A DNA stretch of 4,733 nt from a virus (Duplodnaviria > Heunggongvirae > Uroviricota > Caudoviricetes). Positions 1 to 4,701 of this stretch are shown here, piece by piece (position 1 is the stretch's first letter; each line of letters starts with the position of its first letter). The notes beneath the pieces were generated by a model that was not told the origin of the DNA, made no database searches, and was given only the letters and a program-made list of their open reading frames with translations. The DNA lies in IMG/VR virus record IMGVR_UViG_2703718787_000005; one strand, given 5' to 3'. The translations under genes were made by a program, and so were the position numbers.

Positions 1-177
1 TGACCTCATTTCCCCTTAACGCCGGGGTAGCGGAACAAAAACCTGCTGCATAGTTATTAAAGTTGAACCCTGCCGTCATGTTCTTACGCCTCGGGCTGGC
101 TACTTAACCCCTGACCACTGCCTGGTAACTCGAAGTATTGCCTGGCGTTCTGTGGGGCGGGGTGGGTTGATGAAATA

Positions 178-206
178 ATGATGCACTTTTAAAGTTATGA
201 TGTCAA
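178..206 (-). promoter_or_regulatory. pL-like early leftward promoter (candidate): -35 TTGACA (minus strand, plus coords 206..201), 17-bp spacer, -10 CATCAT (183..178)
   Basis: Seen in sequence: plus-strand TGTCAA at 201-206 is a perfect TTGACA on the minus strand; 17 bp further along is CATCAT (4/6 to TATAAT, with A2 and T6 kept). Operator copies sit in the spacer and just upstream of -35. Orientation and position match lambda pL by inference only. Confidence 0.4.
184..196. promoter_or_regulatory. Operator copy oL-a, CACTTTTAAAGTT (core palindrome ACTTTnAAAGT), inside the pL-like spacer
   Basis: Exact reverse complement of the 13-mer at 1246-1258 in the repressor/cro intergenic region. The core 185-195 is a perfect 11-bp palindrome around a central base. 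Flanked on both sides by ATGATG (178-183 and 197-202). Confidence 0.55.
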
Positions 207-219
207 CACTTATAAAGTT
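207..219. promoter_or_regulatory. Operator copy oL-b, CACTTATAAAGTT (12/13 to oL-a), abutting the pL-like -35
   Basis: One mismatch to the 184-196 13-mer, same orientation, 23 bp downstream of it (start to start, equal to centre to centre). Confidence 0.5.
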
Positions 220-228
220 AGCTTTTGA

Positions 229-258
229 TCAATAAAAACCGCCTCGTGTGAAGCGGTT
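229..258 (-). terminator. Rho-independent terminator candidate downstream of the toxin gene
   Basis: Minus-strand RNA would form a 6-bp stem AACCGC/GCGGUU (plus 237-242 pairing with 253-258) with a 10-nt loop, followed by UUUUUAUU (plus 229-236). No U-tract in the plus direction, so it is unidirectional. It starts 17 nt after the toxin stop. The loop is large, so strength is uncertain. Confidence 0.45.
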
Positions 259-274
259 CTGCGAAAAAAGAGGA

Positions 275-776: not shown

Positions 777-1184
777 CTATGCTCGGTGCCCTTTCTGGGC
801 AGCGAGCCATCTTGCAACAGTGCGCTCCATTGATTCTTTTTTGTCTTTCATGTCTTTAAGCATTTTTTCTTGATCTTCCTCTGGAAATGCTCCGAATGTT
901 TGAAGCAGTTCCATTTGCCTGGGGCCTATTTTCATAGTATCTGGCACCACAACCTGCTCTTCTTCGTTTGGCGGTAACATAAACCAATATGGGGGATAAC
1001 CCGTTACTTCAGAAAGTTTATCAAGATTAGCTGTTGATGGACTTGTGATTCCGTGAACCCACTTTTGTACCGATTGCTGGGCAACACCAATCCTGCGGGC
1101 TAGTTCTGCCTGCTTAAGTCCTGTTTTTTCCAGTACCAATTTTATTCGGTACGTGGTTATTTCAAGGGTGGTCATTCGCTTCAT
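777..1184 (-). CDS. paaR2: Prophage repressor, XRE-family HTH, cI analogue (PaaR2-like), 135 aa, no S24/LexA-like autocleavage domain
   Basis: N-terminal HTH (LEKTGLKQAELARRIGVAQQSVQKWVHG). Divergent from the cro-like gene across a 107-bp operator/promoter region. At 135 aa it is too short for a peptidase S24 domain, and no Ala-Gly / GDSM-type motifs are visible. No Shine-Dalgarno precedes the ATG, so it may be leaderless. The symbol is inferred from gene context and is not verified. Confidence 0.8.
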   Translation of the reverse strand: MKRMTTLEITTYRIKLVLEKTGLKQAELARRIGVAQQSVQKWVHGITSPSTANLDKLSEVTGYPPYWFMLPPNEEEQVVVPDTMKIGPRQMELLQTFGAFPEEDQEKMLKDMKDKKESMERTVARWLAAQKGHRA

Positions 1185-1980: not shown

Positions 1981-2051
1981 CTGAAAATATTTATACCGGA
2001 TCGCTTCCGGCAATTCGTGAGTAAAAAGATTCGGTCTCAGAAGAGGTGAGT

Positions 2052-3092
2052 ATGGCTAATGCCTGGCTCAGATTATGGCATGACATGCCAAATGACCCTA
2101 AGTGGCGAACAATTTCCAGGGTGTCAGGACAGCCAATCGCAACAGTGATGGCTGTGTATATCCACCTTCTGGTGAGCGCGTCACGAAATGTCACGACATG
2201 TCACGGCGTGTCACTACGTGGTCACATTGATGTCACAACGGAAGATTTAGCAAGTGCACTTGATGTGACGGAAGAAGTAATTGATTCAATTTTGCAGGCG
2301 ATGCAGGGGCGGGTGCTTGATGGAGATTTAATCACTGGATGGGAAAAACGCCAGGTAGCGAAAGAGGATAACGGCAACGTTTCGCAAACCGCGAAATCCC
2401 CGGCAGAGCGTAAGAGAGCACAACGCGAGAGGGAAAAATTACGAAAACAGAATGAGGGGTGTCACGATGAGTCACGCATATGTCACGACATGTCACTACG
2501 AGTCACGACAGATAAAGATACAGATAAAGAATTAAACCCCACACATAACGCGCGCATGCGCGAGAGTGCTCCAACCGGTGAGTCGCATGGTGCGCCGTTG
2601 CAGACAGCCGAACCTGAATACCTGGACGGCCTGAGCGAACCGATCGGGAAATTTTCGATGACTACTGTCTGGCAGCCGTCGTCGGATTTTCGACAACGGG
2701 CAGCAGTGTGGGGTATGGCTCTGCCTGAGCCGGAATTTACACCTGCAGAGCTTGCCGCATTCCGGGATTACTGGATGGCGGAGGGGAAGGTTTTCACGCA
2801 GGTTCAGTGGGAGCAGAAATTTGCCCGCCACGTGCAGCACGTCAGGGCACAGGTAAAACCAGTCAGCAAGGGGGTAAACCATGCAGCAGCACCAGGTGGC
2901 ACCGCATCACGGGCAGTTCAGGAAATTCGGGCAGCACGTGAGCAGTGGGAACGTGAAAACGGATTTATCAGCGACGGAAACGGCCTGGAAGCTGTGGGAG
3001 CTTATGGGGGAGGTGTATTCGAACCGCTGGACTCAGAAGAACGGGGCCGCACCTTCGAAGCTCTGGATTGCCCAGATTGGTGCGATGACTGA
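2052..3092 (+). CDS. Replication initiator (lambda O analogue): replisome-organizer-type N-terminal domain, linker, DnaT-like C-terminal domain
   Basis: I take the start at ATG 2052 (SD AAGAGGTGA upstream); the track ORF begins at an in-frame GTG at 2046. N-terminal motifs W.RLWHDMPNDPKW ... TGWEKRQ resemble the phage replisome organizer N-terminal domain. The C-terminal part (FSMTTVWQPSSDF...FTPAELAAFRDYWMAEGKVFT) resembles the DnaT-like domain common in phage initiators. Two iteron arrays lie inside the gene. Family assignments are from memory. Confidence 0.8.
   Translation: MANAWLRLWHDMPNDPKWRTISRVSGQPIATVMAVYIHLLVSASRNVTTCHGVSLRGHIDVTTEDLASALDVTEEVIDSILQAMQGRVLDGDLITGWEKRQVAKEDNGNVSQTAKSPAERKRAQREREKLRKQNEGCHDESRICHDMSLRVTTDKDTDKELNPTHNARMRESAPTGESHGAPLQTAEPEYLDGLSEPIGKFSMTTVWQPSSDFRQRAAVWGMALPEPEFTPAELAAFRDYWMAEGKVFTQVQWEQKFARHVQHVRAQVKPVSKGVNHAAAPGGTASRAVQEIRAAREQWERENGFISDGNGLEAVGAYGGGVFEPLDSEERGRTFEALDCPDWCDD
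2180..2236. repeat. Iteron array 1: six direct GTCAC-containing repeats at 10/10/10/11/11-bp spacing
   Basis: GTCAC starts at 2180, 2190, 2200, 2210, 2221 and 2232, all in the same orientation and on a helical-repeat period, inside the N-terminal domain coding region. Shares an exact 17-mer with array 2. Confidence 0.7.
2461..2506. repeat. Iteron array 2: five direct GTCAC-containing repeats at 10/11/10/10-bp spacing
   Basis: GTCAC starts at 2461, 2471, 2482, 2492 and 2502, in the linker-coding region of the initiator. This is the position where lambda ori lies within O. Confidence 0.75.
2461..2562. other. Probable origin of replication: iteron array 2, then an AT-rich stretch with GATAAAGA x2 (2509-2536), then a 12-bp perfect palindrome CGCGCATGCGCG (2551-2562)
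   Basis: The iterons / AT-rich / palindrome order is what I recall for lambda ori, but that is recollection. All three elements are directly visible in the sequence. Confidence 0.5.
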
Positions 3093-3546
3093 ACAGCAAA
3101 TCCGTCTGGTCTGTCGTCAGTGCATGGACCGCTGCCGGGCGGGTGAAACGTGGCCCCCGGACCTGGCTGAGTTTGTTGCACTGATTTCGGAGAGTGGGGC
3201 AAATCCATTTGGTCTTACGGTGGATGCAGTGATGGAAGAGTACCGGCGCTGGCGCAATGAATCCTGGCGATACGACGGGAGTGATAAATACCCGTGGCCA
3301 CAGCCTGTGCTGTACCACATTTGCCTCGAGATGCGCACCAGAGGGATTGAACGTCAGATGACTGAAAGTGAGCTGAAACGACTTGCGGAACGACTGTTGA
3401 CCAAATGGGCAAAGAATGTTGGTAACGGCATGAGTGTTCCGCCAGTGCGACGACAACTGGAAGGGCCAAAACACCCGCCAGGGCCAACGCCAATTGAGTT
3501 ACTGAAACAGGAATATGAGCGCCGGAAAGCGGCTGGTTTTGTCTGA
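2881..3546 (+). CDS. Lambda P-like replication protein (helicase loader), up to 221 aa; start uncertain (ATG 2881, 3004 or 3085)
   Basis: The C-terminal two thirds align by eye with lambda P as I remember it (YPW motif; MTESELKRLAERLL vs LTDAELRRKAADEL; FVALISESGA vs FVAWCREEA). Resemblance seems to continue upstream of the ATG at 3085, which favours 3004 or 2881. ATG 2881 has the best RBS (AAGGGGG, 6-nt spacer) but overlaps the O-like gene by 212 nt out of frame. Gene finders that forbid long overlaps would probably call 3085. Confidence 0.65.
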   Translation: MQQHQVAPHHGQFRKFGQHVSSGNVKTDLSATETAWKLWELMGEVYSNRWTQKNGAAPSKLWIAQIGAMTEQQIRLVCRQCMDRCRAGETWPPDLAEFVALISESGANPFGLTVDAVMEEYRRWRNESWRYDGSDKYPWPQPVLYHICLEMRTRGIERQMTESELKRLAERLLTKWAKNVGNGMSVPPVRRQLEGPKHPPGPTPIELLKQEYERRKAAGFV

Positions 3547-3579
3547 ATTTGAGAAATGATTTTGTCGGAGGAAATTTTA

Positions 3580-4293
3580 ATGGAAACCGTTTTTGACGCA
3601 CTGAAAGCACTGAAAAGAGCCTCTTCACAGGAGGTGTCGGCCCGCCTTGGAATCAGCCGCGAAGATGCTGTCAACGAGCTGTGGAAGCTGAAACGCCGTG
3701 GTGAAGCTGATAACAAGGGGTCGATGTGGTGGCTGACGAGTGAGGCAACTGAAATGGCCACAAAAACCACTGCGGAGATGCTGATTAACGCAATTGAACA
3801 GCATGGTCCTCAGTCGGCTGACGAACTGGCGTTAATGTTCGGGATTACCTCCCGCCGGGCGAATTCAACGCTGGCAATGGCAATAAGCAAAGGTCGTCTG
3901 ATTCGAGTAAATCAGAACGGTAAATTTCGTTACTGCCTGCCGGGCGATAATTTACCAGCAGAGCCGAAAGCTGCATCGGTAACGGAAACTGCTGGTAAAG
4001 CCTTTCCTCAGCCAGCAGGTGTTGCGTTACCAGTCCGGGAAGCGGAAACACAGGAAGAAATTAAAACTGAAAGTGTGGCGGTCACAGTGCAGTCACAGCC
4101 GTCGTTCACCAGAAAGCATCCGGATAGTCTGATTTTACCATCGCTGCATGTGGCTAACCGCGAACTGCGCCGGGCAAAAGGTCAGGTTCAGAAGTGGGAG
4201 CGAGTCTGTGCTGCGCTGCGTGAGCTGAACAAGCACCGGGATATTGTCCGACAGATTGTCGATTCCTCCAGTCGTATTGTGTCGGAAAAGTGA
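3580..4293 (+). CDS. Hypothetical phage protein with two winged-helix-like modules and a C-terminal coiled-coil-like region, 237 aa
   Basis: I take the start at ATG 3580 (SD GGAGG, 8-nt spacer) rather than the track's 3556. Two internally similar ~55-aa modules (…[38 protein letters not shown] and …[43 protein letters not shown]), a Pro/Ala/Glu-rich linker, and a charged helical C-terminus. Function unknown. Confidence 0.7.
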
Positions 4294-4308
4294 TTGCCGG
4301 AGGTACTT

Positions 4309-4701
4309 ATGGCAAGAGTATTTACACAGGAAGAGCGGGAAGAAGTGAAGGCGCGCATTGTGGAATTCGTGCGCCTGAGCGGACGAGAAACTTTTCGACA
4401 ACTGGCAGATAAAACGGGTGTCAGTAAGACCGCTATTCGTCGTTTATCTGGTGCGCTTGCGGCCAGTGGTGATGTCTGGCTCTCTGATTGCGGGGTATTT
4501 CCATCAGAGCAGGCGTATCGCGTATGGCGTAAGACACCGGAGAAGGCTGCTGACCCGACACTGATTCGAAAGTTACCTGACGGAGAAATACGTCGTTACA
4601 ACAGATGGCAGAACATAATTTGTCGTGAGTGCCGCCAGAGCGAGGTTATGCAGCGTGTGCTGGCGTTCTATCGGGGAAACTTTCAGGAGGTGATGGAGTG
4701 A
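4309..4701 (+). CDS. ren: Ren-like protein, 130 aa
   Basis: I take the start at ATG 4309 (SD GGAGG, 5-nt spacer); the track ORF starts at TTG 4294. The C-terminus ...ICRECRQSEVMQRVLAFYRG resembles the lambda Ren C-terminus as I remember it (…ECRQSAAMKRVLAVYG…), and an HTH-like segment (ETFRQLADKTGVSKTAIRRLSGAL) precedes it. It follows the P-like gene, as ren does in lambda. Recollection, not alignment. Confidence 0.65.
   Translation: MARVFTQEEREEVKARIVEFVRLSGRETFRQLADKTGVSKTAIRRLSGALAASGDVWLSDCGVFPSEQAYRVWRKTPEKAADPTLIRKLPDGEIRRYNRWQNIICRECRQSEVMQRVLAFYRGNFQEVME

Follow-up and report, generated by a model that had tools for sequence, protein, structure and literature searches.

The left end of the 4,733-nucleotide stretch of DNA analysed here (the window) carries a 13-bp word that returns about 1 kb to the right, on the other side of a gene for a putative repressor. 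Are the two regions early promoters governed by a single repressor, as an initial annotation of this sequence had proposed? A pattern search of the window places CACTTTTAAAGTT exactly at 184-196 on the plus strand and at 1246-1258 on the minus strand, which confirms that the left site is the reverse complement of the oR1-like site, and it also bears out the second left copy, CACTTATAAAGTT at 207-219, a match of 12/13. The true longest word common to the non-coding stretches 1-274 and 1185-1291 is 14 bp long (CACTTTTAAAGTTA), and the distance from the left to the right sites (oL to oR) is ~1.06 kb. Chance recurrence had been judged unlikely, and the shuffles agree. If at most one mismatch is allowed, the window contains the 13-mer at 3 places, where 200 dinucleotide-preserving shuffles lead one to expect 0.00. 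A word of at least 13 bp common to both non-coding stretches arose in 0.06-0.12% of 5000 shuffles, and shuffling these two stretches gave p about 0.001 for the shared 14-mer. Each left 13-mer sits at the centre of a longer site of dyad symmetry, 15 bp in length (183-197 and 206-220), whose underlying palindrome, ACTTTnAAAGT, has 3 sites in the window at one mismatch or fewer against 0.16 expected.

The two left sites are interlocked with a putative leftward promoter, pL. On the minus strand, a promoter consensus scan finds TTGACA (206 to 201), a 17-bp spacer and CATCAT (183 to 178), which together match 10/12 consensus positions. The -35 is the perfect minus-strand TTGACA that had been noticed between the two left copies (201-206; TGTCAA on the plus strand); it abuts the second 13-mer and is invariant in the nine loci described below. 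Operator oL1 (183-197, GCACTTTTAAAGTTA; core 184-196, palindrome centred on 190) fills the spacer, its final base being the first base of the -10 (178-183), and oL2 (206-220, ACACTTATAAAGTTA; core 207-219, centre 213) abuts the -35 with a 1-nt overlap, so that the operators overlap both hexamers. Their centres are 23 bp apart. As transcribed, pL therefore reads O2 aactttataagtg / TTGACA / tcat / AACTTTAAAAGTG / CATCAT. The -10 matches the consensus at 4/6 positions only, and the CATCCT of some relatives at 3/6, which leaves the strength of pL uncertain. Transcription is predicted to start near 171, 7 nt downstream of the -10, in agreement with the leftward start 'near 170' proposed earlier, likewise a prediction. 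The predicted leader (1-171, minus strand) would form part of a 5'UTR of about 173 nt ending at a ydfA-like (DUF1391) gene, whose ATG lies 3 nt past the window's left end according to the annotation of an identical chromosomal locus (L001). A structured or known RNA within this ~170-nt leader is unsupported, since its fold is not unusual (z = +1.0) and it has no Rfam match. No third left operator was found: positions 222-236 are variable, a terminator comes next, and nothing left of oL1 matches.

The same register recurs on the right. The right promoter pR (-35 TTGATA, 1236-1241; -10 TATAAA, 1259-1264) has oR1 (1245-1259, TAACTTTAAAAGTGT; core 1246-1258) in its 17-bp spacer and oR2 (1222-1236, TCAGCTTAAAGGTGT) abutting its -35, and reads, as transcribed, O2 cagcttaaaggtg / TTGATA / aact / AACTTTAAAAGTG / TATAAA. 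Operator oL1 is thus an exact match to oR1 and occupies the register of O1 in pR. A weak third site, oR3 (1196-1210, ACATAAAAAAAGTGT), lies in the spacer of the divergent promoter pRM (-35 GTGCTA, 1219 to 1214; -10 TAAAAT, 1196 to 1191), which reads GTGCTA / gtta / CACTTTTTTTATG / TAAAAT and has no O2. The operator-hexamer register is identical in pR, pL and pRM. The centres of oR1 and oR2 are 23 bp apart, those of oR2 and oR3 26 bp, and the half-site consensus of the five operators is (A/T)(C/A)ACTTT. The operators are drawn as 15-mers on the model of the ACA-N9-TGT sites of more distant relatives (see below); the outer half-site positions in the window (TA, GC, AC, TC) are less regular than in those relatives, so the extent of each operator, 13 or 15 bp, rests on the register only. 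The pRM -10 is followed by six bases (gaatgc) and then by ATG at 1184, a geometry that predicts a leaderless repressor mRNA, probably starting at that ATG; leaderless mRNAs have been shown for paaR2 and for lambda cI (PMC8630535). RefSeq places the repressor start at ATG 1175 (132 aa), whereas the conserved pRM geometry favours ATG 1184 (135 aa, MKRMTT...).

Gene calls from open reading frames and a Pfam search, together with the leftward context of L001, show what these promoters would serve. On the minus strand, a cI-equivalent repressor of the DicA/PaaR2 type (777-1184; 135 aa; Pfam HTH_3, 5.6e-14) is followed by a PaaA-type antitoxin (556-747; Pfam PaaA2, 6.3e-20; annotated as a 63-aa form by RefSeq in L001) and a ParE-family toxin (275-556; Pfam ParE_toxin, 3.6e-16; ~70% identical to ParE2, PDB 5cw7). 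Regulator, antitoxin and toxin form one operon in the gene order of CP-933P. An intrinsic terminator (234-260, minus strand), a GC-rich hairpin and U-run of -18.1 kcal/mol (z = -3.71) with its T-run on the minus strand only, ends this operon directly ahead of oL. On the plus strand lie ydaS, the Cro equivalent (1292-1558; Pfam YdaS_toxin and HTH_3), ydaT (1555-1980; CII-like), an O-like gene with a DnaT domain (2046-3092), a lambda-P-like gene (2881-3546), a DUF1627 gene (3556-4293) and a DUF977 gene (4294-4701). To the left of the window, L001 carries DUF1391/ydfA, ydfB, DicF (Rfam match of 76.7 bits), dicB, DUF1482, an exonuclease, an excisionase (xis) and an integrase (int). The gene content and these leftward neighbours identify the region as the immunity region of a Qin/CP-933P-like lambdoid E. 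coli prophage. pL lies downstream of the repressor operon and is directed away from it, toward dicB, exo, xis and int.

Three further features of the region deserve mention. The sequence TTGATTCATGAAAATCAA at 1548-1565, spanning the ydaS stop and the ydaT start, matches perfectly the published YdaT (CII-like) site TTGATTN6AATCAA; by analogy with CP-933P it is probably a pRE-type site at which leftward establishment transcription is activated. Within the O-like replication gene, short direct repeats of the form (T)GTCAC(G/T)A... are clustered at two places, about 2180-2240 and 2460-2515, and are probably origin iterons, if the placement of ori within lambda O is a guide. In L001, a sub-threshold Rfam match to STnc100 (3743-3952, minus strand; 38.7 bits against a gathering score of 47) adjoins DicF and overlaps the dicB region.

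Which protein would read these operators? The repressor has an N-terminal HTH_3 domain with the recognition helix AQQSVQK and a helical C-terminal domain of ~45 aa common to PaaR2 and DicA. Both of these domains show homology to DicA (28% identity, E = 6e-16, DicA aligned over 25-131). Its C-terminus is 59% identical to that of PaaR2 over 46 aa, and the N-terminal domains of the two proteins do not align. The repressor cannot be PaaR2 itself, which begins MQKKEIRRL and aligns at the C-terminus alone. Nor is it probably PaaR1 of CP-933M, since its HTH-coding DNA is found in 36 of 5426 complete E. coli genomes against 584 for a CP-933P marker. Pfam finds no Peptidase_S24 domain in the 135-aa protein, so that, like DicA and PaaR2, it should escape RecA-mediated cleavage. 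Its sole sequence match in the PDB is the HTH of the phage 434 repressor (E = 6.5e-4). The recognition helix of YdaS, PQQVVSR, bears the same QQ signature as that of the repressor, and YdaS is therefore expected to bind the repressor's operators; helix sharing within an immunity type is seen also in CP-933P, where SYLSQ occurs in both the repressor and the Cro-like protein. A collection of sequenced phages contains none with this repressor, the best tblastn match having <50% identity over the HTH only, and a search of genome contigs gave no confirmed locus. A literature search likewise placed the operator motif in no work on phage or prophage regulation; only unrelated papers printing long sequences matched it.

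The operators are conserved more strictly than their surroundings. The whole module 1-1400, like the HTH-coding DNA, is present in 36 complete genomes. Nine distinct locus versions (81-100% overall identity) were aligned. Within oL the invariant stretches are ATGCACTTTnAAAGTTAT and TGTCAACAC(T/c)TATAAAGTTAG, and variation falls at 178-180, 199-200 and 222-236. The sole change inside oL1, and likewise inside oR1, is at the central base of the dyad, T or A, and oL2 is kept in all nine loci with one C/T change. Counted by alignment column, 36/40 operator and hexamer positions of oL are invariant, compared with 10/25 of the remaining positions (Fisher p = 3.7e-5); when oR is included, the counts become 93/106 and 29/55 (p = 1.9e-6). 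The pL -10 reads CATCCT or CATTCT in the aligned relatives, A2 and T6 being retained. The nine loci are fairly closely related, and shared ancestry could explain part of this conservation; the contrast with the variable bases alongside speaks against a full explanation of that kind. The palindrome ACTTTnAAAGT occurs in exactly two copies, oL1 and oR1, in each of the 9 loci with this repressor, and in zero copies in 7 loci of other immunity types. A megablast search with the 51-bp oL hit 13 genomes, a count from which co-occurrence is not readable since the program needs a 28-bp exact word.

The alignment also disposes of one element of the initial annotation, according to which each copy of the 13-mer is framed by ATGATG. 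The hexamer does stand on both sides of the first copy, at 178-183 and 197-202, and this is the only copy so bracketed. It is not a conserved frame, since the hexamers differ among aligned loci that retain both operators: relatives read AGGATG or AGAATG on the left and ATTATG or ATAGTG on the right. The left ATGATG is simply the pL -10 seen from the opposite strand, and the right one extends from the flank of the operator across two spacer bases that vary into the end of the -35, overlapping it by two bases.

More distant relatives indicate how general the arrangement is. A protein search places relatives of the repressor, 61-76% identical to it, in other Enterobacteriaceae, namely Salmonella, Enterobacter, Klebsiella, Raoultella and Pluralibacter. 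Four loci with the helix TQQTVQQ or AQQTVQQ and repressors 61-73% identical to the window's were compared: one each came from Salmonella and Pluralibacter, one represents a second E. coli type, and the fourth lies on a metagenome contig and encodes a repressor to which NCBI gives a Raoultella name. A locus of Enterobacter asburiae (L013) was left out of the register comparison, its operators being of another type (ACACAAAAAACGnGT). In each of the four, perfect ACA-N9-TGT 15-mers number exactly three at oR and exactly two beyond the left side of the repressor operon, in one and the same register: O2 shares one base with the -35 (TTGAC), O1 occupies the spacer, as oL1 does in the window, and the -10 begins at the last base of O1. 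At the position equivalent to the window's -10, the pL of these relatives has TAGATT or TAGCAT, the TTGAC of the -35 being kept, and their pRM reads TAAAAT (TAGAAT in one locus)-N6-ATG. Since the four are alike, the 'three plus two' operator layout is a property of the family. The half-sites differ, ACACTTT in the window against ACAGTAA or ACAATAA in the relatives, which makes the window heteroimmune to them. The relatives with the helix TQQTVQQ appear to read the outer bases ACA(G/A). That the window's repressor (AQQSVQK) has an uncharacterised specificity within a 434-like 'QQ' family, one that reads the inner ACTTT and tolerates variable outer bases, is a tentative proposal that I consider rather doubtful as it stands. 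If true, this repressor and its relatives would provide a natural close pair for studying how operator specificity shifts along a half-site.

A sharper view of which parts belong together comes from CP-933P, a cryptic prophage of E. coli O157:H7 with a paaR2-paaA2-parE2 immunity region (Jurenas et al. 2021, PMC8630535), whose locus was found with a published primer and then compared with the window. The pL leaders are 96.9% identical over 9-169, and identity drops at 170, precisely where the promoter and operators begin. Homology is found again in parE (~70%), paaA and the C-terminus of the repressor, and in ydaT (the YdaT proteins are about 85% identical); between them, 843-1543 (the repressor HTH domain, oR and ydaS) has no detectable similarity to CP-933P. 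This pattern implies that two separate patches, oL and HTH-oR-cro, were exchanged together, as expected if the repressor and Cro-like pair reads oL. In CP-933P, as in the window, the left operators match those at its own oR, with the repeat consensus GTTTAGTAA in place of ACTTTnAAAGT; the operators, the repressor's DNA-binding domain and ydaS are unrelated to those of the window. The oL and oR of each immunity type have words in common, those of the window being 14 bp long, those of CP-933P 12 bp and those of Qin 10 bp; no such word is common to different types. Judged from its sequence, the window is thus an immunity type distinct from CP-933P and Qin and homoimmune with neither. The leader is an oddity in its own right: although the prophages are heteroimmune, its ~160 nt (9-169, minus strand; 3276-3115 in locus L003) are 96.9% identical in the two, and the bases with which it opens, CAACCCACCCC, are seen again in the Salmonella and Pluralibacter relatives. 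Recent recombination, or a protein- or Rho-related site, are possible reasons for this conservation.

I therefore regard 178-220, with a probability of roughly 0.87, as the oL/pL of a lambdoid E. coli prophage and as the counterpart of Qin dicBp and of PL933P in CP-933P. The proposal that one repressor controls both early promoters finds support in the comparative and positional evidence and in experiments on the two homologous systems, repression in the window itself being the predicted part. Dimers of the repressor (777-1184, minus strand) would bind oL1 and oL2, probably cooperatively through the PaaR2-like C-terminal oligomerisation domain. Because oL1 lies in the spacer and -10 and oL2 on the -35, bound repressor would exclude RNA polymerase from pL. 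YdaS probably binds the same sites. Once repression is lifted, transcription would start near 171 and proceed through the ~170-nt leader into ydfA-ydfB-DicF-dicB-DUF1482-exonuclease-xis-int. A loop between oL and oR, as in lambda, may also form.

Looping leads to one alternative, namely that the operators are real and the promoter vestigial, oL serving mainly as a distal anchor for looping to oR and thereby tuning pR and pRM. The weak -10 (CATCAT, CATCCT or CATTCT) would fit a decayed promoter, many prophages of this group are cryptic, and PaaR2, whose C-terminal domain is conserved here, is reported to form octamers like lambda CI (PMC8630535). Against it stand a perfect TTGACA at 17-bp spacing, the retention of A2 and T6 of the -10 in all aligned loci and an intact leftward operon with DicF and dicB downstream, and the homologous PL933P and dicBp are active and repressible. 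I consider this alternative improbable; moreover, the anchor and promoter roles are not mutually exclusive.

More improbable still is a reading in which the Cro-like YdaS, or some other factor, is the only protein to bind the sites and the cI-like repressor does not. The QQ recognition helix of the YdaS HTH speaks for it, but the helix of the repressor bears the identical signature, the operators change together with the HTH domain of the repressor from one immunity type to the next, and in CP-933P both PaaR2 and YdaS repress PL933P and footprint overlapping sites at oR (PMC8630535). Least credible is the reading in which an A/T-rich palindrome recurs by accident, or belongs to promoters in general, and no particular protein recognises it. 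The motif is indeed short and A/T-rich, as is intergenic phage DNA, yet the shuffles given above (3 sites against 0 expected; p about 0.001 for the shared word), the selective conservation of operator and hexamer columns, and the restriction of the perfect palindrome to loci of this type, always in exactly two copies, effectively refute a chance recurrence already.

The slot between repressor and oL merits a separate comment. In loci L012-L016 (about 2900-3700) it holds PaaA-ParE, a 112-aa unknown protein, DUF6414 or other unknowns, and it appears, by analogy, to be a moron or defence cargo site comparable to lambda rexAB. The window at 275-747 differs from L002 3270-3749 and L003 2524-2995 in the C-terminal ~19 aa of PaaA and the N-terminal half of ParE, where the latter two are of the PaaA2/ParE2 kind. 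L002 combines the repressor and operators of the window with a PaaA2/ParE2-like pair, from which it follows that toxin-antitoxin variant and immunity type assort independently. PaaA-ParE cargo accompanies at least three different immunity types and comes in two toxin-antitoxin variants, a spread that would qualify the published idea that the pair guards the immunity region against recombinational replacement.

The element itself is an ordinary member of a well-known class; it is the specificity of the repressor that is undescribed. What the analysis yields is a regulatory map of this prophage type, with five operators, three promoters and one terminator. It also extends by one heteroimmune member the family of PaaR2/DicA switches, which serves as a model of bistable switching in cryptic prophages and of toxin-antitoxin genes carried within immunity regions. 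It brings no new mechanism.

Comparison with the systems characterised experimentally places the window within this class. In CP-933P, PL933P occupies the same slot, with OL1-3, right after the terminator of the repressor-PaaA-ParE operon and facing away from it, and a PL933P-gfp fusion is repressed about 100-fold by PaaR2, and also by YdaS (PMC8630535); CP-933P lacks a ydfA-like gene after the leader. Qin of E. coli K-12 has the same order (repressor, operator-promoter, ydfA-ydfB-ydfC-DicF-dicB), its YdfA being identical to that of the prophage at 50/51 positions, and DicA, like the window's repressor, is short and without a RecA-cleavage domain. Deletion of dicA derepresses its promoter dicBp, between dicA and ydfA, 22-fold; the antirepressor Rem also lifts the repression, and expression of DicF and DicB from dicBp causes filamentation (PMC10448788). 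Qin differs from the window in its operator (of the TGTTAG...CTAACA type), in having no toxin-antitoxin cargo between repressor and promoter, and in a shorter leader, about 70 nt against about 170 nt.

Lambda resembles the window in that oL and oR share operators which overlap the -35 and -10 of divergent early promoters, in that the repressor operon and its cargo (rexAB) are closed by a terminator (t-imm) just before oL, and in the leaderless repressor mRNA from pRM, a predicted feature in the window. The window differs from lambda in its 15-bp rather than 17-bp sites, in a repressor without the S24 autocleavage domain, and in having no N gene or nutL after pL, the operon opening with ydfA instead. 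It also has two left operators, against three in lambda, in Qin and, as reported, in CP-933P; three left operators are a lambda-specific detail that is not required of the oL/pL class. The operator of phage 434 is ACAA-N6-TTGT, a 14-bp site against 15 bp in the window. The 434 recognition helix begins with QQS, and the 434 half-sites are of the ACA type seen in the window's relatives; the QQ start of the helix and the relatives' ACA half-sites are consistent with recognition of the 434 type.
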